A DNA stretch of 64,000 nucleotides from a virus, in IMG/VR virus record IMGVR_UViG_3300045988_155830, positions 1 through 64,000 of that record; one strand, given 5' to 3'. A program made the translations under genes and the position numbers. The notes beneath the pieces were generated by a model, which saw only the letters and a list, made by a program, of their open reading frames with translations, ran no database searches and was not told where the DNA came from. Every line of letters starts with the position of its first letter. The first letter of the stretch is position 1. This document shows positions 6,960 to 60,420 of this stretch, piece after piece.

Positions 6960-7373
6960 ATGTTATATGAAGAAATGCGATTGCGAAAGACTGGCGAAAC
7001 TGTAAGAGTATATGCTATTAACCCTTCGGAAAATATAGCAACTATATTCTCTACTTCTCAATATACTAAAACAAATAACGGATGGCAGAAAATTAAGTTA
7101 TCGCAGTTAGTTCCGATGGATTTTCCTATTAACAATAAAGATTATATTTCTAAAACAAAGAAGAACAAAGCGAAAGATAGAATGAAATTGATTGAAGCTA
7201 CTTGGCAAACCAGTGACGGAAATCTTTGGAATCATTCTGACATTGATGCAGCAGTGGAACACGAACTTTTTCTTATGAGTTTAGAGGAAAATGGCAATAA
7301 GGAAAATAAAGACGGTAATGAAATTGTATATACTGCATCAGGAAAAATTGTAAAAATAGGAGGTCAAATATGA
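6960..7373 (+). CDS. hypothetical protein
   Basis: 137-aa ORF with a GAAAGAG RBS. Confidence 0.5.
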   Translation: MLYEEMRLRKTGETVRVYAINPSENIATIFSTSQYTKTNNGWQKIKLSQLVPMDFPINNKDYISKTKKNKAKDRMKLIEATWQTSDGNLWNHSDIDAAVEHELFLMSLEENGNKENKDGNEIVYTASGKIVKIGGQI

Positions 7374-8434
7374 TTAAGTTTATTGATAAAAAGAATAGAT
7401 TTGTTGAAATGTTTGACAAGAATACAGGTTTTTATGTTAGAAGTGGAGTTATGGGAGAATATGGAAAAGATACTGGTGTTGACCCATTTATGAGATGTTT
7501 TCCAGCACTTATTGATGTTGGTATTATGAATAAATGTGTTTGCGCTCATAAGTGTAATGTTGACTGTTATCAGAGAGCCATCGACCGTCACGGAGATAAT
7601 ATGTCTCTTGAAGATTATAAGTCAATTCTTGAACAGTGTAAAGGCAAAACATTTCAGTATGCTTTGGGTGGAGCAGGAGACCCTGATACACACGAAAATT
7701 TCAAGGAAATTCTTGAATTATCAAAAGAGTATGGTATCATACCAAACTTCACAACGTCAGGAATTATGATGACAGAAGAAAAAGCAAAACTTTGTAAAGA
7801 ATATTGTGGAGCAGTTGCCGTATCAGAACATTTTGCTGATTATACAAGAAAAGCTATTGATATGCTTTTGTCTGCCGGAGTAAAGACAAATATTCATTAT
7901 GTTCTTGGTTCTGATTCTATCGACTATGCTATTGAGCGGTTGAAGAACGGTGGGTTTGATAAAAGGATAAATGCTGTTGTATTTCTTCTTTACAAGCCCA
8001 TTGGTCTCGGAAGAAAAGAAAATATTTTAACAATGGATAATCCAAAAGTCAAAGAATTTTTTGAATTAGTTGATACAGGTAATTATCCTCATAAGATAGG
8101 CTTTGATTCTTGCTCGTGTGGTGGAATTGTAAACTTTTCACAGCATATTGATATGAACAGTATCGACTTCTGTGAGGGTGGCAGGTATTCAATGTATATT
8201 GATGCTGATATGAATGCTATGCCTTGTTCCTTTGGTAATCAGAATAGTAAGTATTTCGTGAGTCTGCGTAAATATTCTATTGAAGAAGCGTGGGAGAGTG
8301 AAATATTTAATCAATTCAGAAATTCTCTCAATCATTCTTGCCCTAACTGTAAAGATAGAGCAATGTGTGGCGGAGGTTGCCCCATTTGTCGAGATATTGT
8401 TTTATGTGACAGAAAGGAAAAACATTTACTATAA
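7370..8434 (+). CDS. radical-SAM-like / SPASM-domain enzyme, with a non-canonical N-terminal Cys cluster
   Basis: C-terminal CPNCKDRAMCGGGCPIC has the Cx2Cx5Cx3C SPASM/twitch spacing; a Gly-rich ALGGAGDP motif resembles the GGE motif; the N-terminal Cys cluster is CVCAHKCNVDC. Confidence 0.5.
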   Translation: MIKFIDKKNRFVEMFDKNTGFYVRSGVMGEYGKDTGVDPFMRCFPALIDVGIMNKCVCAHKCNVDCYQRAIDRHGDNMSLEDYKSILEQCKGKTFQYALGGAGDPDTHENFKEILELSKEYGIIPNFTTSGIMMTEEKAKLCKEYCGAVAVSEHFADYTRKAIDMLLSAGVKTNIHYVLGSDSIDYAIERLKNGGFDKRINAVVFLLYKPIGLGRKENILTMDNPKVKEFFELVDTGNYPHKIGFDSCSCGGIVNFSQHIDMNSIDFCEGGRYSMYIDADMNAMPCSFGNQNSKYFVSLRKYSIEEAWESEIFNQFRNSLNHSCPNCKDRAMCGGGCPICRDIVLCDRKEKHLL

Positions 8435-10763: not shown

Positions 10764-12176
10764 ATGGATGATTTTCAGACCCTCGTTGATTTTGAAAATC
10801 TCTATAATTCTTACCGAACTTCTATGCGAGGTAAAGGTAAGAAATTGAGTGCGGCGAAGTTCGATGTTATGGCACTTGAAAACCTTTATGTGATGAAGAA
10901 ACAACTCATTAACCATACATATAGGATTTCACCGTATTCAGAGTTTATTGTAACAGAGCCAAAGAAAAGAATAATCAAATCAGGTTCATTTCGAGATAAG
11001 GTATTACAACATTGCTTATGTGATTATGTATTATTGCCAACTATGAAAGACCGTTTTATAAAGGACAATTATGCAGGTCAAATTGGTAAAGGAACATTAT
11101 TCGGACTAAATCGTTTGTCAGAAAATTTACATAATTTTTATGACAAATATGGTAGTGATGGATATATACTAAAATGTGATATAACCAAATTCTTTTATAG
11201 TATCAACCACGATATTATGAAAGAGAAGATAAGAGAAAATTTTTCGGATGAAGATATTCAATGGATTTGTGATAGTTTTATAGATAGTGTTGATGGAGAT
11301 GGGCTACCTCTTGGAAATCAAAGCAGTCAAGTATTTGCCCTGATATTCCTCAACGGACTTGACCATTATATTGTCGATGAGCTTGGATGTAAATATTATG
11401 GCAGATATATGGATGACTTTTATTTACTATCTAATGATAAAGAGTATCTAAAAGAATGTCTTATTAAAATCAAAGAGTATTTAGCTAACTTAAAATTAAC
11501 GCTTAATAACAAGACTGAAATTGTTTCTATGAGTAAAGGTATTAGATTTCTTGGTTTTCATACATATTTGACCGAGCAAGGTAATGTTATAAGAAAACTA
11601 AATGGAGATAACAAAAGACAAGTTAAAAAGCGTTTAAGAAAGTACACAAAGTTAGTAGTACAAGGAAGAATGAAACGAGAAAAGTTCAATGAGATTTACT
11701 GTTCTTGGCGGAATCACGCATCTCACGGTAACTGTTTCAAGTTGATTTATGGAATGGATTTGTTTGTGGAAAATTTATTTAATGAAGAAAAACCTGAAAT
11801 AAGGGTTATTATTGCCGGTAGTAGAGACTTTAATAACTACGAACTATTGGAAAAGCACCTTAATAAATTCGTCAAAGAACACCCTAATAATAAGATAACT
11901 ATTATAAGCGGTGCTGCTCGTGGTGCAGACCAACTCGGAGAAAGATATGCCAGAGAAAAGTGCATATTATTAAAGAGGTTTTCGGCAAATTGGGAACAAT
12001 TCGGTAAAAGGGCAGGTTATATTAGAAACATTCAAATGCTCGACTATATAGATGCATCTACCTGCGATTCATATGTGTTTGCATTTTGGGATGGAAAGAG
12101 TAAAGGAACAAAACAAATGATTGATAGTGCTAAAAAACGAAATATACCGTATCAAATTGTAGCATTTCAATCTTAA
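10764..12176 (+). CDS. DGR reverse transcriptase with an extra C-terminal SLOG/DprA-like domain
   Basis: YMDD motif; PLGNQSSQVFALIFLNGLD matches the DGR-specific [LI]GxxxSQ motif; C-terminal IISGAARGADQLGE resembles the Rossmann-like SLOG/DprA fold. Confidence 0.85.
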   Translation: MDDFQTLVDFENLYNSYRTSMRGKGKKLSAAKFDVMALENLYVMKKQLINHTYRISPYSEFIVTEPKKRIIKSGSFRDKVLQHCLCDYVLLPTMKDRFIKDNYAGQIGKGTLFGLNRLSENLHNFYDKYGSDGYILKCDITKFFYSINHDIMKEKIRENFSDEDIQWICDSFIDSVDGDGLPLGNQSSQVFALIFLNGLDHYIVDELGCKYYGRYMDDFYLLSNDKEYLKECLIKIKEYLANLKLTLNNKTEIVSMSKGIRFLGFHTYLTEQGNVIRKLNGDNKRQVKKRLRKYTKLVVQGRMKREKFNEIYCSWRNHASHGNCFKLIYGMDLFVENLFNEEKPEIRVIIAGSRDFNNYELLEKHLNKFVKEHPNNKITIISGAARGADQLGERYAREKCILLKRFSANWEQFGKRAGYIRNIQMLDYIDASTCDSYVFAFWDGKSKGTKQMIDSAKKRNIPYQIVAFQS

Positions 12177-14422: not shown

Positions 14423-14497
14423 GCGAATATAGTGTAAAGGTTAGCACGCAAGTTTTCCAAACTTGAAGTGAGAGTTCGATTCTCTTTATTCGCTCCA
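14423..14497 (+). tRNA. tRNA-Gly (anticodon TCC), CCA encoded
   Basis: Acceptor gcgaata/tattcgc; anticodon stem caagt/acttg with loop tttccaa; T-arm gagagttcgattctc. Confidence 0.75.
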
Positions 14498-14502
14498 TAT
14501 AT

Positions 14503-14578
14503 TGGGGTGTTGCCAAGCGGTAAGGCACAGGACTTTGACTCCTGCATTTCGTTGGTTCGAGTCCAACCACCCCAGCCA
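14503..14578 (+). tRNA. tRNA-Gln (anticodon TTG), CCA encoded
   Basis: Acceptor tggggtg/cacccca; D-arm gccaagcggtaaggc; anticodon stem cagga/tcctg with loop ctttgac; T-arm gttggttcgagtccaac. Confidence 0.8.
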
Positions 14579-14887
14579 ATAATAGGCAGACAGGGTTTGC
14601 AAATAACAGCCTGGAATTAAATCTGTCGGAAGTCCGAAAAATTTGTATGCCTTTAAATCTATTAAAATGTTGTTTAAAGAGTATCGATGTTTACTTCGGT
14701 ATTCGTTAATATAGGCTTGGGCGGTAGGCATAGCGAAGTACAAGATAAATAGAGCCGCCATATAAACAGAAAGCAATTTAATTTTTTTACATAAAAATTG
14801 TGAGTAACGGCTGATTTGGCAGCCGAAGTGTGAGACATATATATTGTACTCATAAAAAACTATGTAGGTTAGTGGATAATATTTGAG

Positions 14888-15188
14888 GTTTTGGAACTGT
14901 ATTAAATTACATAGTTACCAAACGTATTGGCTATTAGTCAAATCAGTAACACGGTTTTGGAACTGTATTAAATTACATAGTTACCAAACGGTAAGCATAT
15001 GTACCCTGATTTACAACATTGTTTTGGAACTGTATTAAATTACATAGTTACCAAACACACATATAAACATAAATATATGTATGAAAGTTTTGGAACTGTA
15101 TTAAATTACATAGTTACCAAACAACCAGGGGACCTTATAGAATATGTAAAAGGTTTTGGAACTGTATTAAATTATATAGTTACCAAAA
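14888..15188 (+). CRISPR. CRISPR array: 5 x 36-bp repeat GTTTTGGAACTGTATTAAATTACATAGTTACCAAAC with 4 spacers (30-31 bp)
   Basis: Repeats at 14888, 14954, 15021, 15087 and 15153; repeats 1-4 are identical, and the gene-proximal repeat 5 carries 2 substitutions; the repeat is an imperfect palindrome; an AT-rich leader lies upstream. Confidence 0.9.
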
Positions 15189-15206
15189 ATACGAAGGAAA
15201 GTTAAA

Positions 15207-16553
15207 ATGACAAACACATATATAATTGCAAGAAAAATTCAACTGATACCAGTAGGAAAGAAGGAAGAAGTTAATCGAGTTTATACATATATTAAGGATG
15301 GTATAAAATCACAAAATATGGCAATGAACCAGTATATGAGTGCTTTATATACTTCAACTATTATGGAAATGACAAAAGATGATAGAAAAGAATTAAGCAG
15401 ACTATTTGGTAGAATTAGTACAAGCAAATTAGGAAGTGCTTATGATAAAACAATAGAGTTTGCAAAGGGGCTACCTATGGGTGGTGCAATTCAGCAAAAA
15501 GTCAAAAAAGATTTCGATAATGCAATGAAAAAAGGACTTAAATACGGCAAACTATCTTTACCATCATATCGTGATAGCAATCCTCTTTTGGTACACGTTG
15601 ATTATGTTAGACTTCGTTCTACGAATCCACATTTGGATAACGGCTTATATCACAACTATAGTAGCCACGAAGAATTTTTAAATCACTTATATAACGAAAA
15701 ACTTGAATTGTTTATTAAGTTCGCAAACAAAATTACATTCAAACTTGTTTTAGGCAATCCACGAAAATCAGCAGAAATCAGAAGTGTTTTCAAAAATATT
15801 TTTGAGGATTATTATCACATAAAAGGAAGCTCCATTGAACTTGACGGAACGAAAATTATCTTAAATATGTCGATTGAAATTCCGAAAAAGAAAGTTGTTC
15901 TTGACGAAAATGTTGTTGTTGGCGTGGATTTAGGAATCGCAATTCCTGCCGTATGTGCCTTGAATACCAATGACTATGTAAGAAAAAGCATAGGTTCACG
16001 AGATGATTTTTTGAGAGTAAGAACACAGATTAAATCTCAAAGGGACAGGCTTAAAAGGAAGTTGAAATATACAAGGGGCGGTCACGGCAGAGCGAAGAAA
16101 ATGCAGGCTATGGATAGGTTTACTGATTATGAGAAAAATTGGGTACAAACCTACAACCACAAAGTTAGCAAAGATGTCGTTGATTTTGCGTTGAAAAACA
16201 AGGCTAAATATATAAATCTCGAATGTTTAGACGGTTTCAGTAAGGATGATAAAAAGAAAAATTACTTATTAGCGAACTGGTCTTATTACCAGTTGCAACA
16301 ATACATAAAATACAAAGCCGAAAAATATGGAATTGTGGTTAGATTTGTAAATCCCGCTTATACCTCTCAAACCTGTAACTGTTGTGGTAATTTAGAAGAA
16401 GGACAAAGAGTTAAGCAATCAGAATTTATCTGTAAAAATCCAGAGTGTAAAAATTTTGGGAAGAAAATCAATGCTGATTTCAATGCGGCTCGCAACATCT
16501 CAATGTCAACAGACTTTGTTGAGAAAGAAGAAGAAAAAGAAAGAATTACATAA
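15207..16553 (+). CDS. compact type V effector (TnpB/Cas12f-like RuvC nuclease, 448 aa)
   Basis: RuvC-I VGVDLGIAIPAV; RuvC-II YINLECLDG; zinc finger CNCCGN...CKNPECKNFG; RuvC-III INADFNAARNI; ATG 19 nt after the last repeat with RBS GAAGGAAAG; no tnpA nearby. Confidence 0.75.
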   Translation: MTNTYIIARKIQLIPVGKKEEVNRVYTYIKDGIKSQNMAMNQYMSALYTSTIMEMTKDDRKELSRLFGRISTSKLGSAYDKTIEFAKGLPMGGAIQQKVKKDFDNAMKKGLKYGKLSLPSYRDSNPLLVHVDYVRLRSTNPHLDNGLYHNYSSHEEFLNHLYNEKLELFIKFANKITFKLVLGNPRKSAEIRSVFKNIFEDYYHIKGSSIELDGTKIILNMSIEIPKKKVVLDENVVVGVDLGIAIPAVCALNTNDYVRKSIGSRDDFLRVRTQIKSQRDRLKRKLKYTRGGHGRAKKMQAMDRFTDYEKNWVQTYNHKVSKDVVDFALKNKAKYINLECLDGFSKDDKKKNYLLANWSYYQLQQYIKYKAEKYGIVVRFVNPAYTSQTCNCCGNLEEGQRVKQSEFICKNPECKNFGKKINADFNAARNISMSTDFVEKEEEKERIT

Positions 16554-16567
16554 AGCAGCATAAATTT

Positions 16568-16643
16568 GTGGTTGTTGGTGTAACGGTTAGCACGCTTGTT
16601 TGTGGCACAAGTAGAGTGGGTTCAATTCCCACACTTCCACCCA
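16568..16643 (+). tRNA. tRNA-His (anticodon GTG) with encoded G-1, discriminator C and CCA
   Basis: Anticodon stem cttgt/acaag with loop ttgtggc; T-arm gtgggttcaattcccac; extra 5' G opposite discriminator C; the acceptor has two U-U mismatches, so confidence is moderate. Confidence 0.5.
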
Positions 16644-16651
16644 ATATATAT

Positions 16652-16727
16652 GTGCCAGTAGCTCAATCGGTAGAGCAATCGACTTTTAATCGGTAGGTCG
16701 GAGGTTCGATTCCTCTCTGGCACACCA
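16652..16727 (+). tRNA. tRNA-Lys (anticodon TTT), CCA encoded
   Basis: Acceptor gtgccag/ctggcac; D-arm gctcaatcggtagagc; anticodon loop cttttaa; T-arm ggaggttcgattcctct. Confidence 0.8.
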
Positions 16728-16732
16728 TTGAT

Positions 16733-16904
16733 GGCTGAAAATACTCATCCTTCTAAATCTTTTGCCTGTTAAGCAGGAGGTTGTCGGTTCAAGTCCGGCA
16801 CTGCCCCCGTGGGTAGTTAGCTCAATCGGATAGAGCGCCTACAAGAATAGAGTATAAAATTTCCATCAAATTTCCCTTAACGGCTATATTGAAACTTCCT
16901 TCTA
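16733..16904 (+). repeat. two copies (A and H) of the GGCTG-N8-TCATCCTTCTA motif with tRNA fragments (T-arm gtcggttcaagtccggc, then D-arm gctcaatcggatagagc)
   Basis: Motif A at 16733-16755 and motif H at 16882-16904; between them a T-arm followed by a D-arm without a canonical tRNA fold. Confidence 0.5.
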
Positions 16905-19292: not shown

Positions 19293-19995
19293 GTGGCTGT
19301 GGACTTTCTTCCTTCTAAAAGAAAATAATTTCGATGGTTTAGCCATCTACATAATGATGATAAGATAGAAAGTCCGATTTCCACTATTCATAATTTGTGG
19401 CTGTAATGCTCATCCTTCTACATAATATCAAGAACTGCAAATTCTTCTAAAAAGAGTATTAAATTCCCACACCTCTTTCTAAATATTATGTGGCTATTGT
19501 TTTTTCATCCTTCTATGCCAATAGGCACTTGATTTGGGATTAAGATTTTAGAGAAACAAATTTCCACAATACAAAATATGCGGCTGACCAACATCATCCT
19601 TCTATATATCAGGGAACTATGTGTCGTGGGTTCGACTCCCACCATTCCATCTTCGATGGGATGTCGCACAGTTGGTAGTGCAATAGTATTATTAGATGTT
19701 AAAATTACCGCATCAAATAAATTTCAAATAATTAGAAATAATATTGAGAAAAACACTTGACAAATAGTAAAATGTGTGCTATAATATCTAATGTAAGTTA
19801 AATAAACATTCGGCTGTTGAGGTTCATCCTTCTACCTATTAGGAATAGACTTTTAATCTATATATTATAAGAACCTCAAATTTCTGAATATAAGCTGGCT
19901 GAAAGGTTTCATCCTTCTTCAAATACATAATACCAAGCTGCTAATCGTGGGTTCGATTCCCACCTATCTACATTGCTGGTAGTCGCCAAGAGGTA
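19293..19995 (+). repeat. array of about 90-110-nt degenerate tRNA-like units, each beginning with the conserved motif GGCTG-N8-(T)CATCCTTCTA (copies B-G)
   Basis: Motif copies at 19295-19317, 19399-19420, 19492-19515, 19582-19604, 19812-19834 and 19897-19919; units E and G contain a perfect T-arm (gtgggttcgactcccac / gtgggttcgattcccac) followed by a D-arm (gcacagttggtagtgc / gccaagaggtaaggc); unit F contains a Lys-type anticodon arm (atagacttttaatctat); none folds as a complete tRNA. Confidence 0.55.
19757..19785 (+). promoter_or_regulatory. sigma-70-type promoter TTGACA-17-TATAAT inside the tRNA-like array, preceded by the conserved intergenic motif
   Basis: TTGACA at 19757-19762 and TATAAT at 19780-19785. 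Confidence 0.55.
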
Positions 19996-28662: not shown

Positions 28663-29295
28663 TTGAGAGTAGCGAAAATCAAAGGATTGATTTGTTTAGT
28701 TACTGTGCTGGCTGTTATCAGTACAACAGCAATTATAGCAACAGATTCAGAGATTGAACAAAGCGAAAACCAATCCAAAGAAGAAAGTACAGCAATTGTA
28801 ACTACTCAATTAGTAACAGAAGTTACAACTACTAAAAAGGTCGAGGAAACCACAGAAGAAATAACAGAAGTAACAACGGAGCAGGTAACAGAAAAGCCGA
28901 CAGAAGTTACAACGGTTAAACCTACTACAACAGTTAAGCCGACAACAAAACCTGTGGAAACTACGAAACCAAAAGAAACAGAAGCACAAATAGAAAAATC
29001 AGAAACAAGTGAGGCTTTATATTCAGCTTCAAAATTTATGAATATGGGTGTCATTTATTGGAATGGATGGAGATGGACTTGGTATAGCGAAAGGGTTCTT
29101 CCTGGCGGTGGTTTGAATATTCCAGGCAGACACGCAGATTCAAGTGGTTACATTTGCGATGGGAATGATTATATTTGTTTATCTTCTTCATCTTTAAGCA
29201 AAGGTACAGTAATAGCAACGCCATTTGGTAAGAGTGGTAAAGTATATGATACCGGTTGCGCAAGTGATACCATAGATGTTTATGTAAATTGGTAA
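28663..29295 (+). CDS. secreted Thr/Pro-rich protein with a C-terminal 3D (MltA-like) domain; candidate peptidoglycan hydrolase
   Basis: Signal-peptide-like N-terminus; TTVKPTTKP repeats; C-terminal GTVIATPFGKSGKVYDTGCASDTIDVYV resembles the 3D domain. Confidence 0.45.
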   Translation: MRVAKIKGLICLVTVLAVISTTAIIATDSEIEQSENQSKEESTAIVTTQLVTEVTTTKKVEETTEEITEVTTEQVTEKPTEVTTVKPTTTVKPTTKPVETTKPKETEAQIEKSETSEALYSASKFMNMGVIYWNGWRWTWYSERVLPGGGLNIPGRHADSSGYICDGNDYICLSSSSLSKGTVIATPFGKSGKVYDTGCASDTIDVYVNW

Positions 29296-42502: not shown

Positions 42503-43702
42503 ATGAGTAAAGTTAAGGTCAAAGTAGTAATAGGTAGTAATTATGGAGATGAAGGAAAAGGATTGGCAACACATTTTTTCTCTCAATCCGAGAAAAATAA
42601 GTGCTTAAATGTTTTATTTAATGGAGGATGTCAACGAGGTCATACTGTCGAACTTAAAGATGGCACAAGGCATATTTTCCATCATTTTGGAAGTGGCACA
42701 TTTGATAATGCTCATACATACTTTGACCAAAACTTTATGGTTAATCCTGCAATCTTCATTCAAGAATATAATGAGCTTAAAAAATATGGCATCAAACCTA
42801 TATGTATGATTTCTCCTAAATGTAGAGTAAACACTATGTATGATATGTTTATCAATCAAATTGTTGAAATACATAGAGAGAATAAAAGACACGGTTCTTG
42901 TGGTTATGGTATTTGGGAAACACAAAAAAGGTATGATGATGGTGTTTTTGCATTAGATTATAACCAACTATCTCATATGAACGATAAAGATGTTGTAGAT
43001 TATCTACATAATATAGCAAATGTTTATTTACCTAAAAAATTATTTGAATACGGAATAACAGAAATTCCACAAGAGTATCAAGAGTTGATAAAGTCTAAAG
43101 GGTTAATTGAACATTTCGTTAGTGATTTAAGAGAAATGCAATATATAACTTTTATGTGTGATTTCGATAGAATCCGAAATAAGTATAATACCATTATATT
43201 TGAGGGTGCGCAAGGTCTTGAACTTGATGAGAATAATTTAAAAGCATTGCCATACATCACAGCAAGTAATACTACTTCTTATACACCCATTCAAAGAGTT
43301 AATGATTTTGATTGTGATGTTGAAATTTGTTATATTACAAGGTCTTATTTTACCAGACACGGAGCAGGAACATTGCCAACAGAATGTGATAAGTCGGATA
43401 TAAATGAAGATATAACTGACCTTACAAACTGTTATAACGATTACCAGCAAACAATAAGGTATGGAATGTTTGATTATGATGAGTTTATCAATAGAGTGAA
43501 AACTGATATACAAAGAGCAAGAGAAAAAATCAGCGGAACAAAAACTTCTGTTATGATTACTCATTTGAATTATACGGATAATGAAATTGCAGGTAATTGT
43601 AAAATTCAAGATTTGTTAAAACATTTCGATAATATATATTTATCTAATACAAAATTTTCAGAAGATATAAAGAGAACCAACAAAGGAAGTACAATACATT
43701 GA
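42503..43702 (+). CDS. adenylosuccinate synthetase-like enzyme (PurA/PurZ family)
   Basis: N-terminal VVIGSNYGDEGKG P-loop typical of PurA; 399 aa, shorter and more divergent than housekeeping PurA. Confidence 0.65.
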   Translation: MSKVKVKVVIGSNYGDEGKGLATHFFSQSEKNKCLNVLFNGGCQRGHTVELKDGTRHIFHHFGSGTFDNAHTYFDQNFMVNPAIFIQEYNELKKYGIKPICMISPKCRVNTMYDMFINQIVEIHRENKRHGSCGYGIWETQKRYDDGVFALDYNQLSHMNDKDVVDYLHNIANVYLPKKLFEYGITEIPQEYQELIKSKGLIEHFVSDLREMQYITFMCDFDRIRNKYNTIIFEGAQGLELDENNLKALPYITASNTTSYTPIQRVNDFDCDVEICYITRSYFTRHGAGTLPTECDKSDINEDITDLTNCYNDYQQTIRYGMFDYDEFINRVKTDIQRAREKISGTKTSVMITHLNYTDNEIAGNCKIQDLLKHFDNIYLSNTKFSEDIKRTNKGSTIH

Positions 43703-49126: not shown

Positions 49127-50073
49127 CAAGGGAAGAAGTGCTGAATTCTATTCAGTTGAAAAAGAGATTCTGTAAAGATTGTAATATACCGATTGCCGTG
49201 TTTGATAATCCGTATTTTTGTGAAAGACTTATAACACTTGATACAATTTTTAATTGTGTTGAACAGTTTAATCTGTTTTGTGTAGAAATGCAGCAGTTCA
49301 ATAATGAGCAGGATTATTTTGAATACTATAATTTAGTAAAAGATAAAATGATTTCGGATATTAAAGGAAATCATACATATCAATCTTTCAATATAGATTT
49401 AAGTGGTAAATCTGAAACTGCCCTTAATATAGAAAGAGCAAAAGTCGGAAAGAAAAACCTTTATGTTGAAAATAATGACGGAAAGGCATTTATATCTATT
49501 GATATGAAAAAAGCAAACTTTTCATCAATGAACTTCTATTCGAGAGATATTTTCGATTGCGACACCTGGGAAGATTATGTTGGAAAATTTACGAATAGTT
49601 TACATATTCAAAATAGTAAATATATCAGACAGGTTGTATTAGGTGCTTGTAATCCTAAAAGACAAATTCAGTATGAGCATTCATTGATGTTAAAACTCTA
49701 TCTACATATCAAAGACACACTTAATGACAATGGTTTCACGGCTTACAGTATTGGCGAAGATGAAATACTTATAGAAGTAGGTCAGTTCCACCATCCGCTT
49801 AATAAGTTAAAAGAGGTTATTGATTCTTGTCCTTTAGGTATTGGTAATCTTGTAAGAGTTGAAATGTTTGATTTACAGAAAGCAGGAGATTATGGGTGGT
49901 TAAAAGTTATTTATGATGATAACCAGACCGTTAAATTCAAGTGTATTGATTCAGAGATATTTCATCAAATAGTTAAACACTATTACAATATACCAATTAC
50001 AGAAAATGACCTTGTATTTAGACATAATGGCAGACTTGCACGATTTTTAGAGGAGGTCAAAAATCCGTGGTAG
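49123..50073 (+). CDS. hypothetical protein (316 aa)
   Basis: Overlapping start and stop codons. Confidence 0.5.
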   Translation: MTREEVLNSIQLKKRFCKDCNIPIAVFDNPYFCERLITLDTIFNCVEQFNLFCVEMQQFNNEQDYFEYYNLVKDKMISDIKGNHTYQSFNIDLSGKSETALNIERAKVGKKNLYVENNDGKAFISIDMKKANFSSMNFYSRDIFDCDTWEDYVGKFTNSLHIQNSKYIRQVVLGACNPKRQIQYEHSLMLKLYLHIKDTLNDNGFTAYSIGEDEILIEVGQFHHPLNKLKEVIDSCPLGIGNLVRVEMFDLQKAGDYGWLKVIYDDNQTVKFKCIDSEIFHQIVKHYYNIPITENDLVFRHNGRLARFLEEVKNPW

Positions 50074-51392
50074 ATATAAAAATGCCTATGCCGGTTGAAT
50101 TTGCATTAAACAGATTGCATTCAAATGGTTATGAAGCTTATATCGTTGGTGGATGTGTACGTGATAGTATTATAGGAATTCAACCTCACGACTGGGATAT
50201 TTGCACATCTGCTTTGCCAGAGCAAGTCCAAGAAATATTCAAAGACTTAAAAGTAATTCCCACTGGTTTACAGCACGGAACAGTAACCGTTGTTTTTGAA
50301 GATGGCGATTGCAAGCAATGTCTTGAAATCACTACTTACAGAATTGACGGAGAATATAAAGATAACCGACACCCTGAAAATGTTAAGTTTGTATCTGACC
50401 TATCACTTGATTTAATGCGCAGAGATTTTACAATCAATGCTATGGCTTATAATGATAAAGAAGGCATCATTGATATGTTTGGCGGAGTTGAAGATATTGA
50501 AATGGGCTGTTTGAGATGTGTAGGAAATCCAGATGATAGATTTCAAGAAGATGCGCTCCGCATTATGAGAGCTATTCGCTTTGCAATTAGATATGATTTG
50601 CAAATTGATGATGAGATTATTAAATCAATTCAGAAAAACAAGATACTTTTGAAGAATGTATCTGTTGAAAGAATTTGTGCTGAATTGACAAAGATACTTG
50701 AATCAAATATCGGCAATGACGGTTCAAAGAAAAACAGGATTGAACTGATTGGTTATCTTATTGATTTTTTACAGGTAGTTCTTGATTACAAGATTGATTT
50801 TGATGAGCAAGAGGTTTACAACAGATTGGCTTTTGTTGAGCCAAATGTTCCATTAAGACTCGCAATCTTGTTTGATACTACTAATATTATGAATATCCTT
50901 AAAGATTTAAGGTTTTCAAACGATGTTGTATTTGCAGCACACGCTATCCGTGAATATGGTCATAAAATTCTTGACGAGAAAGATAAGCGGAGTAGCAAAT
51001 CAAGCATTGCGGCAGCAGTCAATAATCTGCATATAGGAGATAGAGAAGATAATGTTGAAGATGATAGCTCATTGCGTTACTATGCGAGACGGTCATTAAA
51101 AAACATTCATTCTTGCTCATTTGAATCCATAATATCGTTTGCAAAGGCTTATGTCAATGATGAATATATGTTTGTTGCATTAAACATTCTTCAAAGGCAA
51201 ATGCAATTTTGTAAAGAGAATGACGTATATTGCCTTCAGTATCTTGCCGTAAATGGCAATGATATTATGCAAGCCGGATTTGAGGGTAAGGATATAGGAG
51301 ATATATTAAATAAACTTCTCGATATGGTTATGCGAGAAGATGTCCGAAATAACAGAGAAGAATTGTTGGCTGCCGTATCAAAATTTAGATAA
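50067..51392 (+). CDS. tRNA nucleotidyltransferase (CCA-adding enzyme), class II
   Basis: GGCVRD, DWDI, RRDFTINAMAY and ERIxxE-like motifs. Confidence 0.8.
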   Translation: MVDIKMPMPVEFALNRLHSNGYEAYIVGGCVRDSIIGIQPHDWDICTSALPEQVQEIFKDLKVIPTGLQHGTVTVVFEDGDCKQCLEITTYRIDGEYKDNRHPENVKFVSDLSLDLMRRDFTINAMAYNDKEGIIDMFGGVEDIEMGCLRCVGNPDDRFQEDALRIMRAIRFAIRYDLQIDDEIIKSIQKNKILLKNVSVERICAELTKILESNIGNDGSKKNRIELIGYLIDFLQVVLDYKIDFDEQEVYNRLAFVEPNVPLRLAILFDTTNIMNILKDLRFSNDVVFAAHAIREYGHKILDEKDKRSSKSSIAAAVNNLHIGDREDNVEDDSSLRYYARRSLKNIHSCSFESIISFAKAYVNDEYMFVALNILQRQMQFCKENDVYCLQYLAVNGNDIMQAGFEGKDIGDILNKLLDMVMREDVRNNREELLAAVSKFR

Positions 51393-55448: not shown

Positions 55449-55655
55449 ATGTTTAAATGTAAAAATTGTGGAACTGAAATGGAGAGAGTTTATTCTTTTG
55501 AAAATGAGAATGAAAGTTATCAGCAGATGAAGTGTCCTAACTGTGGCGGTGCTACAAAAAAGAGACCTATCGTGTATGACGATAACGGCAATCTCGTAAC
55601 CAATTTCAAGAAGAACAATAAAAAGAAAAAGCAGAGAAAGGCTAAAGAAGAATGA
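55449..55655 (+). CDS. hypothetical zinc-ribbon protein
   Basis: CKNCG...CPNCGG. Confidence 0.45.
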   Translation: MFKCKNCGTEMERVYSFENENESYQQMKCPNCGGATKKRPIVYDDNGNLVTNFKKNNKKKKQRKAKEE

Positions 55656-58600
55656 TTATCAATGATAAGAGAGCATTAGCCTATATCGTAACCATTGATG
55701 AAATTAGACCTATTCCGAATTACGATAGGGTTGAACACGCTCGTACAAATGGATGGTGGTGTGTAACTCGTCTTAATGAATTAAAAGTTGGAGACAAAGC
55801 GGTTTATTTTGAAGTCGATAGCAAAGTGCCGGCAGATGATGAGAGATTTAGTTTCCTTGAGGCTAAACACTACAAGATTAAAACTCAAAAAATGTGTGGA
55901 GTTTTTTCACAAGGTTTGCTAATGCCAGTTACATTATTTCCTGAATTAGCGGATATGGAAGTCGGAACAGATGTTACTGATATTCTTAAAGTTACATATT
56001 CTGTCATTGAAGATAATACAAGAAAATCCAAAAATGGAGACCCTGATGCAAAATATAAGTCTATGGCACAGCGACATCAAAAGATTTTTAAGAAACCTAT
56101 TGTGCGAAAGATTATGAAACACAAGCTCGGCAGAAAGATTATGTTCCTTTTCTTTGGAAAAAAGAAAGATAAACCATTATCATTTCCGACACATTTCCCA
56201 TTTGTTCATAAGACAGATGAAGAAAGGTGTTTAATTGGCGATACAAAAGTCCAAACAAACAATGGTGTTTTAAAAATTGCCGACATAGTAAATAAAGAGT
56301 TGCCTGTTGAGGTTTTATCTTATAATGAGAAAACAAAAACAGTTGAATATAAACCGATTATTTCTTATCAAAAATTTGCGAAGAAAGAAGATGAAGATTT
56401 AATCGAAATAAAATATCCTTACAGATTTGGAAATCAAAAAACAAATACTATTCGTTGCACCCCAGACCATAAATTTTATAATGGTTCAACTTATGTACGA
56501 GCTGATGAAATTCATCAAGGTGATAAAATTTTTATTCACCATCATTGTTATGATGACTATGTTATTCAAGTTGTTTTTGGAATGCTACTTGGAGATTCTT
56601 CAATTTATTATGATAAGAGAAGTGGTAGTAATAATATCCGCATCCAAACCTCACAAGGCGAAAAACAATTAGATTACTTAAAAATGAAGCAATCGTTGTT
56701 TGGAGAACAATTCTTTAAGATTTCCAAATGTAAAAGCGGATATTGTGACAATGTGGTTTATAAAGGGTGTCTATCGGCTGATTACAATATTTCTAAAGCT
56801 GTATTAGAAAATTGTTTTATTAACAATAAGAAAACAATTACACCTACAATGTTAAAATATATTACGCCACTTTCTCTCGCAATTTGGTATATGGATGATG
56901 GCAACCTTAAACATAAATATGATAGTTGTAGTCCATCAATTATTATTTCTACTTGTGGTTTTTCAAAAAATGAAAATGAATTGCTAATTGATATGTTGAG
57001 AAATAATTTTGGAATTGAGTGCAACTTGCGTAGAGAGAAAAATAAATATTGGAGCATTTATATTACAACTGAAGGAACAAAGAAGTTCCTAAAACTCATT
57101 ACTCAATATATCCCACCGTGTATGAGGTATAAAACATTACAAGAATATGAGAATGATTATTTTTCTATCCAAGATTTAAGATATAAAAAGCAGGAACGAT
57201 TGATGCCCATACCAGTAATATCAATTAAAAAATATAAGGGTATTAGACGATATAAAACTGTTTTTGATATTGAAGTTAAAGATAATCATAATTTCTTTGC
57301 GAACAATATATTAACTCATAATTGTGAGAATATGCCGTGGGTTCTTGGATATGAAAGACCGTTAATCGTGACTGAAAAACTTGATGGTTGTCTTGATAGA
57401 GATGTTAGCGTTGTTACAGATGCTGGTTCGTTTAAGATTTCAGAAATTGTAAACAAAAAACTTCCTGTGAATGTTCTCACTTATAATTCTAATTTGAATA
57501 TTTGCGAATACAAACCGATTGTAGATTATCACAAATGGGAAAGAGTATCGGATATGTATGACATAGTAGTATCTCAACAAGGTTATAAGTGTGAAAACAA
57601 ACCGAAACATATTCGCTGTACAAGTGAACACAGCTTTTATGTTGGTAACAATCAATACATAAAAGCTAAAGACTTAAAAAATACTGATATAATTTATCAT
57701 AGATATGAAATTATTGATACATTAGTAAAAGAAATCTTATTGGGAATTTTGCTTGGAGATGCCTCATTATCTTCTAAATACGGAGTAATAAATGGTGGCG
57801 TTGATTTTAGTCATTCTATTAAACAGAAAGATTATTTTAATGAGATAAAAAGATTGTTGGGTCAAAATATTTCAATAGATACAACAAAATCGGGATATAA
57901 TTCTGAAATGTTAAGAGGTCATTTTTATACTAATTCAGAATTTAAGGAGTTGTCAAATAAAATATGTGTAAGAAATCACAAAAAATATGTAACACAAGAA
58001 TGGGCAAATGAATTAACTCCCATATCTCTTGCATTTTGGTATATGGACGATGGAACTATCTCAAATGCTGATTCAAAGTTGTCAAGACCTACAATTAGTA
58101 TTGCTACAAATGGTTTTAGTTATGAGGAATGCGAAAACTTAAAAAGAGCATTATCAACAAAGTTTAATATTGAATCAGACATAAAAATGGGAGAATCATA
58201 TAAAGGGAATACACTCTATATGAATACAATGAATACGGCTAAATTTGCTTCCTTGATTGCTCCATATATTTGCGATGGTATGAAGTACAAGTTGCCAAAA
58301 TCAATGAGAAATATTAAGTATTGTCTCGGAGATTATATAGCGAGCAATGGTAGCTCAATTACTCCCACGAAAATTATTTCTGTAAGAAAAATTGACAATT
58401 ATAACCGCAAATATGTTTTTGATTTAACAGTCAAAGATAACCATAACTATTTTGCAAACGGTATTTTAACACACAATACCTCATCTACATATATTCTTGA
58501 AAGAAAAGGCAAGAAAAAATTCGAGTTTTATGTTCTATCAAGAAATGTTCGTCAAAAGACACCTGACCAAAAGTGCTACCACGATAAGAATATTTACTGG

Positions 58601-59011
58601 GATATGGCTATTAAAAACAATATTGAGCAACGCCTAAAAGAATATCTTATTGCAAATCCAGACTTGAAATATGTCTGCATACAAGGGGAGTCTGTTGGTA
58701 GTGTTCAAGGAAATCCACTTAAATTAAACGAAGATGAACTCTATGTATTTAACTTCATTCGTTCCGATGTGGGTAGATTATCATCTATTGACGGAAAAGA
58801 AATTATTGAGAGTTGGGGTATGAAATTTGTCCCAATATTGGAAACAGAATATTATGTACCAACTGATATGGAAACATTCAAAGAGTATGCAACTGCAAAA
58901 TCTGTTGTAAATCCGAATGTATTGCGTGAGGGCATTGTGCTTCGTGACCCGACCAATGATTTTAGCTTTAAGAATGTTTCCCGTGAGTATTTATTAAAAC
59001 ACGGAGGTTAA
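55652..59011 (+). CDS. RNA/DNA-ligase-family nucleotidyltransferase (KxDG) interrupted by two LAGLIDADG inteins; the extein is about 391 aa
   Basis: Extein motifs TEKLDG|TSST (motif I), IQGESVG (motif IV) and FSFK (motif V); two insertions with the intein hallmarks Cys1 and ..THN followed by C or T. Confidence 0.65.
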   Translation: MIINDKRALAYIVTIDEIRPIPNYDRVEHARTNGWWCVTRLNELKVGDKAVYFEVDSKVPADDERFSFLEAKHYKIKTQKMCGVFSQGLLMPVTLFPELADMEVGTDVTDILKVTYSVIEDNTRKSKNGDPDAKYKSMAQRHQKIFKKPIVRKIMKHKLGRKIMFLFFGKKKDKPLSFPTHFPFVHKTDEERCLIGDTKVQTNNGVLKIADIVNKELPVEVLSYNEKTKTVEYKPIISYQKFAKKEDEDLIEIKYPYRFGNQKTNTIRCTPDHKFYNGSTYVRADEIHQGDKIFIHHHCYDDYVIQVVFGMLLGDSSIYYDKRSGSNNIRIQTSQGEKQLDYLKMKQSLFGEQFFKISKCKSGYCDNVVYKGCLSADYNISKAVLENCFINNKKTITPTMLKYITPLSLAIWYMDDGNLKHKYDSCSPSIIISTCGFSKNENELLIDMLRNNFGIECNLRREKNKYWSIYITTEGTKKFLKLITQYIPPCMRYKTLQEYENDYFSIQDLRYKKQERLMPIPVISIKKYKGIRRYKTVFDIEVKDNHNFFANNILTHNCENMPWVLGYERPLIVTEKLDGCLDRDVSVVTDAGSFKISEIVNKKLPVNVLTYNSNLNICEYKPIVDYHKWERVSDMYDIVVSQQGYKCENKPKHIRCTSEHSFYVGNNQYIKAKDLKNTDIIYHRYEIIDTLVKEILLGILLGDASLSSKYGVINGGVDFSHSIKQKDYFNEIKRLLGQNISIDTTKSGYNSEMLRGHFYTNSEFKELSNKICVRNHKKYVTQEWANELTPISLAFWYMDDGTISNADSKLSRPTISIATNGFSYEECENLKRALSTKFNIESDIKMGESYKGNTLYMNTMNTAKFASLIAPYICDGMKYKLPKSMRNIKYCLGDYIASNGSSITPTKIISVRKIDNYNRKYVFDLTVKDNHNYFANGILTHNTSSTYILERKGKKKFEFYVLSRNVRQKTPDQKCYHDKNIYWDMAIKNNIEQRLKEYLIANPDLKYVCIQGESVGSVQGNPLKLNEDELYVFNFIRSDVGRLSSIDGKEIIESWGMKFVPILETEYYVPTDMETFKEYATAKSVVNPNVLREGIVLRDPTNDFSFKNVSREYLLKHGG
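56228..57322 (+). mobile_element. intein 1 (365 aa, LAGLIDADG homing-endonuclease type)
   Basis: Begins CLIGDT; internal LLGDSSIYY and AIWYMDDGN; ends NILTHN with C+1 (CENMP). Confidence 0.75.
57389..58477 (+). mobile_element. intein 2 (363 aa, LAGLIDADG type), inserted directly after the KxDG glycine
   Basis: Begins CLDRDV; internal LLGDASL and AFWYMDDGT; ends GILTHN with T+1. Confidence 0.75.
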
Positions 59012-59415: not shown

Positions 59416-60420
59416 ATGAAATCAATTGTCAACTATAAAAGAATATGTGATAAACCATTCCTGATTATGATGTGTGGCCTGCCCGGAAGTGGCAAAAGTA
59501 CATTTGCTGAAAATTCCATCACGGTAACTTCGGGTGTAAAGCAGTATAAACCTGTAATCCATTCTTCTGATGGTTTACGCAAAGAGATTTATGGAAATGA
59601 ATCAACACAAGGAGATGCTAATAAGGTATTTGGAGAATTACATAAACGTATTAAGAACGACCTTATTGCCGGCAAAGATGTTATTTATGATGCGACTTGC
59701 ATTAAAAAGAAACAGCGTATTCAGTTTCTCAAAGAATTAAAAAATATATCTTGCACTCCTGTCTGTATTTGTATGGCAACAGAATATTCACTTTGTCTAT
59801 ATAACAATGAGCATAGAGAAAGAAAAGTACCTGTTGATGTTATTAAGCGTATGCAAATGAACTGGCAGCCTCCTCATTATAATGAAGGCTTTGAACAGAT
59901 TACATATATATTTTCTTATCTTGATAAAAATTACAATATAGTCAATGCAAGTCAAAAAGATAAATATAACCTCGGAAAATTCTTTGAAATAGCTAATTCA
60001 TTTGACCAAGAAAACCACCATCATAAACTTACACTTGGCAAACATTGTGAAAATGCAGGTCAAGGAATACAAGCAACAAACCCAGATAATTTTTGGCTTT
60101 TGATTGCTACTTTATTACACGATAATGGCAAGTTATATACAAAGACAAAAACTAATGCAAGAGGTATTGAAGATGGTGATTGCCACTATTACCAACATCA
60201 TTGTGTTGGAGCATATAATGCAATGTTCTATCTTCATAGTTTTGAAGATATTGAAGAAAAGAACATTGCATATGTTACGAATCTGATTTATTACCATATG
60301 CACCCGTATAATGAGTGGAAGCATTCTGAAAGAGTGCATAATAAAGATAAGTTACTTCTTGGCAAAAAATTATATAACGATATTCAACTGTTGCACGAAG
60401 CAGATTTGCTTGCACATTGA
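59416..60420 (+). CDS. polynucleotide-kinase-like P-loop kinase fused to an HD-domain phosphohydrolase
   Basis: N-terminal MMCGLPGSGKST (Walker A, T4 Pnk-like); C-terminal LIATLLHDNGK (HD motif). Confidence 0.6.
   Translation: MKSIVNYKRICDKPFLIMMCGLPGSGKSTFAENSITVTSGVKQYKPVIHSSDGLRKEIYGNESTQGDANKVFGELHKRIKNDLIAGKDVIYDATCIKKKQRIQFLKELKNISCTPVCICMATEYSLCLYNNEHRERKVPVDVIKRMQMNWQPPHYNEGFEQITYIFSYLDKNYNIVNASQKDKYNLGKFFEIANSFDQENHHHKLTLGKHCENAGQGIQATNPDNFWLLIATLLHDNGKLYTKTKTNARGIEDGDCHYYQHHCVGAYNAMFYLHSFEDIEEKNIAYVTNLIYYHMHPYNEWKHSERVHNKDKLLLGKKLYNDIQLLHEADLLAH

Follow-up and report, generated by a model that had tools for sequence, protein, structure and literature searches.

A predicted type V-F (Cas12f) CRISPR locus of a large phage and its spacers matching tail genes of another phage

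Type V effectors of clustered regularly interspaced short palindromic repeat (CRISPR) systems that are encoded by phages were reportedly described by Al-Shayeb et al. in 2020 and 2022. Effectors of this type already reported from phages include Cas12j (CasPhi), Cas12l (CasLambda), and the Cas12f1-like proteins, Cas14j, and Cas14k of jumbo phages (PMC12607003, PMC11748809, PMC11656645). Here, we analyzed a type V locus in positions 1 to 64,000 of the IMG/VR virus record IMGVR_UViG_3300045988_155830; this whole stretch of 64,000 nucleotides (nt) is referred to below as the window. The locus comprises a predicted trans-activating CRISPR RNA (tracrRNA) scaffold, a mini-array of five repeats, and a cas12f gene encoding a nuclease of 448 amino acids. 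Full-length Cas12f homology, an adjacent array with foreign spacers, and a predicted tracrRNA with an anti-repeat, recognized by sequence and covariation, were all found. We estimate at roughly 85% the probability that a large phage carries here a self-contained interference module of type V-F (Cas12f). The system is probably functional, as judged from its sequence, and its role would be to destroy a rival phage that infects the same host alongside it or already resides there. A preliminary description of this DNA had called the virus-borne nuclease the most notable system in the window; phage-encoded effectors of the Cas12f/Cas14 type have already been published (PMC12607003, PMC11748809), and the locus belongs to this established kind.

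The reported phage type V systems resemble the window locus in being virus-borne, in having compact arrays and no adaptation module, and in their presumed part in inter-element conflict. CasPhi and CasLambda, however, have 700–800 amino acids and need no tracrRNA, whereas the window protein is much shorter and is accompanied by a predicted tracrRNA. The similarity to them is remote (phmmer E-values of 0.0025 or weaker; PADLOC Cas12j, 5.9e-4; TMq of about 0.4). The window protein may or may not belong to the Cas14j or Cas14k group. Virus-borne CRISPR mini-arrays acting in inter-viral conflict were reportedly described by Medvedeva et al. in 2019. These arrays, which have also been reviewed (PMC11656645), are similar to the window array in being short, in residing in a virus, and in carrying spacers against another virus, but they use host effectors and host-type repeats, whereas the window encodes an effector and a tracrRNA beside the array. 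The fold and the catalytic core of the window protein are also common to the TnpB proteins of IS200/IS605 elements. TnpB is the evolutionary ancestor of Cas12f. Unlike TnpB systems, the window locus divides its guide between a tracrRNA and an array of several spacers, and the spacers derive from foreign DNA rather than from the flank.

The characterized V-F1 effectors used for comparison were CnCas12f1 of Clostridium novyi (8HR5), RhCas12f of Ruminiclostridium herbifermentans (9NZP), and Al3Cas12f (9NZO/9NZR), as these structures are identified in PMC13186708. The window protein is similar to all three in its domain order, RuvC D-E-D triad, and TNB zinc ribbon, and the CKNP(E/D)C second half of the ribbon is common to it and Al3Cas12f. 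The TM-scores were up to 0.73 for CnCas12f1, 0.67 for Al3Cas12f, and 0.38 for the chains of RhCas12f, which are partly resolved. The strong sequence match to V-F1 effectors covers only residues 160–444, approximately; the N-terminal third of the window protein is divergent and shorter than that of CnCas12f1 (497 amino acids). In addition, the window array and scaffold lie upstream of the gene and the carrier is a phage, unlike in the characterized V-F1 effectors.

Spacer targets and a candidate PAM

Repeats R1–R4 of the array are identical (sequence GTTTTGGAACTGTATTAAATTACATAGTTACCAAAC), and the gene-proximal repeat R5 is degenerate, with 2 changes; the repeat pattern of the array is GTTTTRGAACNNTATKAAATTACATAGKWACMAAA. 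The preliminary description of five 36-bp repeats and four spacers of 30–31 nt upstream of a 448-amino-acid open reading frame was confirmed (Table 1), except that the gap between array and gene is 18 nt and not 19 nt. All four spacers are unique, and none recurs in the window even when 8 mismatches are allowed. A k-mer scan detected a single CRISPR-like array in the window; a second repeat region flagged by the scan, at 28816–28913, was rejected as a coding peptide repeat.

A search of JGI metagenome contigs with a 22-mer of spacer S2 led to a 103.6-kb phage contig (UMHA01069766.1; L109), in which the spacer matched at 31 of 31 positions. The protospacer lies inside a gene for a coiled-coil protein of 231 amino acids. 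The same gene is present on a second contig (L112), just upstream of a PhageMin_Tail (tape-measure) protein of at least 1253 amino acids (E-value of 1.6e-13, above threshold). When each parsed spacer was compared with each locus retrieved, S1 was found to match the tape-measure gene over its full length (30/30) at positions 2841–2812 of L112 and 2677–2648 of a third contig from an independent sample (L158). This third contig thus bears perfect matches to both spacers (S2, 31/31), and S2 matches L112 at 29 of 31 positions. No repeats surround the protospacers in L112 and L109. The perfect full-length matches of S1 and S2 elsewhere, together with the presence of the same repeat family at homologous loci, indicate that the array is not due to chance. 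The inter-phage use proposed in the preliminary description is in line with these perfect matches to the tail genes of another phage.

The first spacer of a relative whose protein is 93% identical (L012) matches the same tape-measure gene at 27 of 29 positions, and the two arrays have no spacer in common. The occurrence of different spacers against one gene in sister phages implies that spacers are being renewed, though no integrase is visible. The matched spacers S1 and S2 are the two scaffold-proximal, i.e., newest ones, as expected under polarized acquisition. This position, the lack of common spacers in L012, and the shared flanking sequence point to a recent, polarized, and PAM-consistent acquisition against one rival phage (PAM, protospacer-adjacent motif).

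The 5′ flanks on the protospacer strand were ...AATTTATC for S1, ...AATTGTC for S2, and TTTTTATC for the L012 spacer. Their consensus is TTRTC, that is, TT(A/G)TC, which occurs at 0.5% of the positions of L112. A 5′ flank shared by three protospacers fits a 5′ PAM, and we infer TTRTC as the candidate. In the array, each spacer is preceded by CCAAAC, unlike the protospacers. By comparison, the PAMs of CnCas12f1 and RhCas12f are C-rich.

Several other spacer searches gave no target. The four window spacers compared with GenBank phages and PLSDB plasmids produced only chance-level matches, to the AT-rich S3; 24-mers of S1, S2, S3, S4, and the second L012 spacer were absent from IMG/VR; the 52 spacers of related loci had no match among GenBank phages; and a first local BLAST of the spacers against the loci returned duplicate arrays only.

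The target is probably a temperate phage of Clostridia, because homologs of a neighboring target-phage gene were located close to bacterial genes, with an integrase gene and an excisionase-like gene at their side, and also occurred in a metagenome-assembled genome (MAG) of Ruminococcus. The G+C content of the target phage is 34%, vs. 33% for the window, and the closest characterized Cas12f enzymes come from Clostridia. A Bacteroidales host, given by the label of one MAG, was not relied on, as the relatives of the target phage point to Clostridia. The locus may offer a clear natural case in which a phage directs an RNA-guided nuclease of its own at the tail genes of a rival.

A different role, in which the system would mainly act as an RNA-guided binder or regulator, or would target the host chromosome for takeover instead of cutting a rival phage, appears quite improbable. 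The first 22 nt of S2 match exactly a bacterial P-type-ATPase-like gene region on one contig (L108, 6752–6773, minus strand); however, the identity stops after these 22 nt, the flank before it is CTCC instead of TTRTC, and this region was rejected as a chance match rather than an S2 target. The three protospacers all lie antisense to their genes, 16 nt of a spacer from one relative recur in a motif conserved in these phages, and a single-repeat cassette of another relative runs straight into the 5′ untranslated region (UTR) of cas12f, which would suit a regulator. On the other hand, the RuvC triad is intact and invariant, and perfect matches over the full spacer length beside a consistent PAM are a hallmark of immunity by cleavage.

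The Cas12f protein and its predicted guide scaffold

The PADLOC profile Cas12u3 matched residues 7–443 of the protein with an E-value of 1.3e-108, and the PADLOC Cas12f model had an E-value of 8.8e-107. The Pfam domain Cas12f1-like_TNB was found at residues 360–431 (7.5e-22). A phmmer comparison with the PDB retrieved CnCas12f1 (4.6e-78), RhCas12f (2.2e-69), and Al3Cas12f (1.2e-64). The residues D241, E339, and D424 were aligned to the RuvC motifs of these three enzymes, the VGVDLG motif being common to all, and the cysteines of the zinc ribbon are C390, C393, C409, and C414. In 22 homologs with 62–92% identity, D241, E339, D424, R401, C390, C393, and C409 were invariant, and C414 was conserved but not invariant. 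The 448-amino-acid protein therefore has one RuvC active site (D-E-D), which a zinc-ribbon TNB domain interrupts, and the RuvC-I/II, zinc-finger, and RuvC-III architecture claimed earlier holds in alignment with solved Cas12f structures. An AlphaFold2 monomer model (pLDDT of 79) was compared with the PDB using Foldseek; the top matches were all Cas12f (TMq of 0.67–0.73), followed by TnpB (0.56–0.59) and by CasPhi and CasLambda at the value given above.

On these alignments, the protein is a full-length Cas12f of the V-F1/V-U3 kind, and the earlier assignment as a compact phage-borne type V locus with a Cas12f-like nuclease and a mini-array is borne out by PADLOC, Foldseek, and the targets of S1 and S2. 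Its size had been placed at the lower end of the Cas12f range; it is typical for the branch and not exceptionally small, since characterized relatives have 415–433 amino acids (RhCas12f, 415; AsCas12f, 422) and the members of the clade 424–470.

In validated guides, the CRISPR RNA (crRNA) consists of the 3′ end of the repeat followed by the guide, as in ...UCAAGUGAAUAUCCAAC of Al3Cas12f (Supplementary Data 1 of PMC13186708). The window equivalent is ...UUACAUAGUUACCAAAC, with the downstream spacer next; the 7-nt tail ACCAAAC stands before each spacer, its counterpart in the Al3Cas12f guide being AUCCAAC. This layout, which is that of the characterized V-F1 guides, implies that the scaffold, array, and gene are all read on the plus strand. 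The degenerate repeat R5 is then, by its sequence and position, the old end of the array, as had been proposed. The companion proposal that the AT-rich stretch 14780–14887 is a plain leader did not hold: its part from 14807 onwards is a predicted tracrRNA scaffold that directly adjoins repeat 1.

The scaffold contains two predicted stems, stem 1 (14808–14813 with 14820–14825) and stem 2 (14830–14834 and 14839–14841 with 14845–14847 and 14849–14853, A14848 being bulged). They are followed by an anti-repeat at 14858–14867, extendable to 14873, which pairs with repeat positions 14–29 (14901–14916 in R1); an inverted repeat joins 14858–14871 to each repeat copy. The guide RNA in the cryo-electron microscopy structure of RhCas12f begins with ACGGCUGAUUUAGCAGCCGAAGUCUGAG (Supplementary Data 1 of PMC13186708), and positions 14807–14834 of the window are identical to this 5′ end at 26 of 28 nt, so that stem 1 and the start of stem 2 are nearly identical in the two RNAs. 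The RhCas12f scaffold has 140 nt, whereas that of the window is predicted to consist of about 67 nt of tracrRNA and about 23 nt of repeat, with a short stem 2 and no stem 3.

A covariance model, R1, was built from ten cassettes and included stem 1, stem 2 with the bulged A, and a helix of 10 bp in which the anti-repeat closes onto the first repeat. Its sole strong match in the window was at 14807–14923 (105.7 bits, E-value of 4e-17). One to three matches were present beside each homologous gene examined, nearly always on the strand of the gene where this was examined, and 81 further copies were found in 45 IMG/VR contigs that had been retrieved by a strict scaffold motif. Across 34 distinct cassettes, 92.2% of the cells were in standard pairs, compared with 35–44% in controls in which the 3′ partners were slid; double-sided changes occurred in 18 of the 24 pairs, including all 10 anti-repeat:repeat pairs, and no shuffle out of 500 equalled the observed pairing values. 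The alignment used for these counts was fitted to model R1 and so favors the structure; the same compensations were seen by eye in the seed MAFFT alignment.

The minimum free energy (MFE) fold of 14807–14953 had a z-score of −3.6 and recovered stem 2 and a repeat:anti-repeat duplex of 15/16 bp. Stem 1 was missing from this fold, its region pairing with spacer S1 instead; this complementarity was dismissed as coincidental, the sequence of S1 being that of a segment of the tape-measure gene. The L012 stretch GTGAGTAACGGCTGATTTGGCAGCCGAAGTGTGAG is identical to positions 14800–14834 of the window, and by eye the identity reaches approximately 14870; upstream of the scaffold, L012 has diverged by eye and contains an extra tRNA-like segment. 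Positions 14579–14806 folded no better than shuffles (z = 0.07) and had no Rfam match. A tracrRNA had been expected within 14579–14887, and the predicted scaffold does lie there; the hairpins named in that connection, in 14579–14780, were rejected as parts of it, given the lack of a structure signal and of an Rfam match, the divergence of L012 by eye, and the start of the R1 match at 14807. A sigma-70-like site inside the scaffold (14816–14845) was by eye not conserved in other cassettes and was treated as a chance occurrence. In most of the related cassettes, (A/G)TTTGAG directly precedes the first repeat; TTTGAG resembles the 5′ strand of stem 2 and may mark the junction of leader and repeat or serve as a signal for processing.

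The expression, RNA processing, dimerization, and cleavage proposed here for the window system follow the steps of characterized Cas12f enzymes. The scaffold, array, and cas12f would be transcribed, possibly as a single unit, and the anti-repeat would pair with positions 14–29 of every repeat. The processing of these duplexes would yield crRNAs made of the 3′ part of the repeat (...ACCAAAC) and the downstream spacer. A Cas12f dimer with the tracrRNA:crRNA would then locate DNA carrying a 5′-TTRTC PAM beside a spacer match, and the single RuvC site would cut this PAM-flanked DNA. The array itself would be spared from self-cutting, because the CCAAAC before every spacer differs from the PAM. A single-guide version would read ACGGCUGAUUUGGCAGCCGAAGUGUGAGACAUAUAUAUUGUACUCAUAAAAAACUAUGUAGGUUAGU-GAAA-AUUAAAUUACAUAGUUACCAAAC, followed by 20 nt of S1. 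A 448-amino-acid effector, a predicted scaffold of about 90 nt, and a PAM hint (TTRTC) from natural protospacers are what would be needed for testing a miniature editor.

The nuclease might instead be an IS200/IS605-type TnpB (OMEGA) that happens to lie near repeats and serves transposon homing via an omega-RNA from its own 3′ end, an explanation that we consider very improbable. Among the NCBIfam models, guided_TnpB (RNA-guided TnpB superfamily) gave the best match (1.1e-55), with Cas12f2 next, and a weak match to Pfam OrfB_IS605 (0.0007) was also obtained. Cas12f descends from TnpB, and the fused single guides found right after the gene in megaphage relatives, as well as the solo modules described below, look like omega-RNA. 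However, the Cas12u3 and Cas12f profiles score far above any TnpB model, Cas12f structures match better than TnpB structures, and the array is a true one, with unique spacers that match another phage beside a shared PAM. A tRNA-His begins 15 nt after the gene, the scaffold model has no match downstream of 16553, and the locus is not bracketed by inverted or subterminal hairpin ends. No transposase family was present among the top 25 of the 45 Pfam families listed for the window. This is consistent with the preliminary description, which had named a non-CRISPR repeat, a TnpB with an intact transposon end, and the loss of RuvC residues as findings that would speak against its reading: the repeats form a genuine array, the RuvC residues are present, and neither TnpA nor an IS end nor a 3′ omega-RNA was detected.

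Equally hard to sustain is an orphan viral mini-array that borrows host Cas proteins next to an unrelated or inactive nuclease gene: there is good documentation of virus-borne mini-arrays that turn host effectors on related viruses (PMC11656645), and adaptation genes were not found in the window. Against this reading, the scaffold, array, and gene are kept together in dozens of viral contigs and among proteins with identities as low as about 54%, nearly always on one strand where the strand was examined. Moreover, local repeat and anti-repeat co-vary, the closest characterized Cas12f has a tracrRNA homologous to the scaffold, and the catalytic residues are invariant.

Several points nevertheless weigh against a self-contained Cas12f interference module. 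The PAM is derived from three protospacers only, and its final C could belong to the spacer, as the repeat also ends in C. S3 and S4 had no significant match among GenBank phages and PLSDB plasmids and none in IMG/VR or the target contigs retrieved, and a 22-mer of S4 was absent from the JGI metagenomes. As the window covers 64 kb of the phage, the “target” could, from the sequence alone, formally lie in the same genome. The long stem 2 and the stem 3 known from RhCas12f are both missing from the scaffold, which makes activity with a tracrRNA of this length a prediction, and a conserved promoter was not identified. The absence of Cas2 and Cas4 rests on ranked lists of the top 25 families, and Cas1 may be encoded elsewhere in the phage genome, outside the 64 kb.

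Related loci, distribution, and adaptation

The protein family has 1,949 members at E-values of 1e-20 or below in a large protein collection, and the best 120 of these 1,949 are at least 61% identical to the window protein. Members of the clade are abundant in viral and metagenome sequences; homologs were located on IMG/VR contigs of 20–186 kb and on metagenome contigs of up to 597 kb. In a set with one genome per species (185,579 species), the best relative was 44% identical and the others 40% or less. The low identity of the best species-representative match and the location of the members on viral and metagenome contigs suggest that, on present data, this Cas12f clade is restricted to viruses.

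In related phage loci, two or three cassettes of scaffold and array surround one cas12f gene, each with its own repeat and a matching anti-repeat (Table 1). In L017–L022, which are contigs of 435–597 kb with a protein 67% identical to that of the window, the scaffold at 7332–7409 is fused to the 3′ half of the repeat via an 8-nt loop. The fusion constitutes a putative natural single guide directly after the stop codon of the gene, and a normal repeat follows about 90 nt later. L002 likewise has a naturally fused single guide directly after the gene (7315–7389). Two further, solo fused modules are present in L019 (1128–1205 and 2945–3022), one of them directly upstream of the ribosome-binding site of a PemK toxin gene. 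In position, the fused single guides of the megaphage relatives resemble the omega-RNA of TnpB. No description of multi-cassette loci, fused single guides, or solo copies was found in the literature searched.

These relatives lead to a tentative proposal, to which we give somewhat less than even odds: a virus-restricted Cas12f clade may possess portable guide cassettes (a scaffold of about 65 nt with its own mini-array, one to three per effector, with co-varying repeat and anti-repeat), which have collapsed to a natural single-guide RNA in megaphages of 435–597 kb. The clade would then form a living series between the omega-RNA of TnpB and the split tracrRNA/crRNA and would have the shortest natural Cas12f guide scaffold known. 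From the multi-cassette and fused-guide relatives, it might be learned how a single omega-like RNA gave rise to tracrRNA and crRNA, or how these two returned to such a form.

Two further features of the related loci were observed. A single-repeat cassette of L027 (2848–3000) holds the 5′ UTR and the start of cas12f in the place of a spacer, which could reflect autoregulation or a decayed array. The 16-nt motif AAAAACACTTGACAAA (given for the plus strand) occurs at 19749–19764 of the window (minus strand) and is conserved also in L012, L008–L010, and L014. It is identical to part of an L001 spacer (7429–7458) and might represent a promoter element common to these phages or a target with a partial match.

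Some V-F loci contain an adaptation module (cas1, cas2, cas4), which is no requirement of the subtype. When 75 open reading frames of the window were scanned with PADLOC, no Cas1 was obtained, the single “Cas1_IIIb” match covering the reverse transcriptase (RT) part of the model only. The Pfam families of Cas1, Cas2, and Cas4 were not among the top 25 of the 45 families listed for the window, nor among the top families listed for related loci. The preliminary description had likewise listed no tnpA, cas1, cas2, or cas4, and none was found in the window, with the scope given above for Cas2, Cas4, and transposases. New spacers would come via an adaptation module of the host, a module elsewhere in the phage genome, or an exchange of cassettes.

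At 10764–12173, upstream of the CRISPR locus by 3 kb, the window encodes an RT fused to a YAcAr/SLOG domain. In PADLOC, this RT was matched best by a generic RT model, by UG17, and by the RT portion of a model for RT-Cas1. A link of this RT to spacer acquisition was rejected, as the Cas1_IIIb match comprises the RT part only and the RT beside the megaphage cas12f is of an unrelated, retron type; the adjacency of RT and cas12f genes looks coincidental.

Locus layout and neighboring genes

Table 1. Positions of the features of the window locus and of the cassettes in related multi-cassette loci.
Feature	Positions	Strand	Remarks
Predicted tracrRNA scaffold	14807–14873	+	Homology to RhCas12f guide, covariance model, covariation
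Scaffold/repeat 1 junction	14874–14887	+	Holds TTTGAG motif, 14882–14887
CRISPR array	14888–15188	+	Five 36-nt repeats; four spacers of 30, 31, 30, and 30 nt
Repeat R1	14888–14923	+	
Spacer S1	14924–14953	+	30 nt; scaffold-proximal
Repeat R2	14954–14989	+	
Spacer S2	14990–15020	+	31 nt
Repeat R3	15021–15056	+	
Spacer S3	15057–15086	+	30 nt
Repeat R4	15087–15122	+	Stands between S3 and S4
Spacer S4	15123–15152	+	30 nt
Repeat R5	15153–15188	+	
5′ UTR	15189–15206	+	18 nt; ribosome-binding site GAAGGAAAG, read from sequence
cas12f gene	15207–16553	+	448 amino acids; type V-F1/former V-U3 kind
D241 codon	15927–15929	+	RuvC-I, motif VGVDLG
E339 codon	16221–16223	+	RuvC-II, motif INLE
D424 codon	16476–16478	+	RuvC-III, motif NADFNAARN
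Multi-cassette locus L004	5731–5966, 7315–7629, 7672–7830		
Multi-cassette locus L014	7707–7916, 9431–9809		
Multi-cassette locus L025	2807–2980, 4368–4560		
Multi-cassette locus L027	2848–2960, 4338–4636		
Further multi-cassette loci			L002–L007

The locus lies within a tRNA cluster, as predicted by ARAGORN: tRNA-Gly and tRNA-Gln are directly upstream (14423–14578), and tRNA-His and tRNA-Lys directly downstream (16569–16727), which agrees with the location between tRNA-Gln and tRNA-His given earlier. This position is fixed in synteny with L012 and L025, and L012 has the same tRNA and Band_7 context. A weak Y-RNA-like match (YrlA, RF02553) follows tRNA-Lys at 16755–16865 on the plus strand (36 bits, E-value of 2e-5, below the gathering score).

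The gene content of the window is phage-like. Nearly all genes are on one strand, 10 tRNAs were found by ARAGORN, and the PHROG and Pfam matches include an NAD ligase, a PurZ-like protein, a CCA-adding enzyme, an intein-containing RNA ligase, Sak, Tad4, DNA methylases, and MazF. A near-identical phage was not found in GenBank.

The window also carries counter-defense and accessory genes, namely those for Tad4 (anti-Thoeris), three N6/N4 DNA methylases, an MT-A70 methylase, a SAM synthetase, a MazF/PemK toxin, an ADP-ribosylglycohydrolase, and the annealing protein Sak. RNA-repair enzymes are represented by RlaP, a polynucleotide kinase (59416–60417), an RNA ligase (55652–59008), the CCA-adding enzyme (50067–51389), and Thg1; the RNA ligase gene is split by an intein with a LAGLIDADG homing endonuclease. 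The PurZ-like adenylosuccinate synthetase is encoded at 42503–43699 (phrog_1211, E-value of 2e-54), which suggests that the phage might swap adenine for 2-aminoadenine, affecting the nuclease sensitivity of its own DNA.

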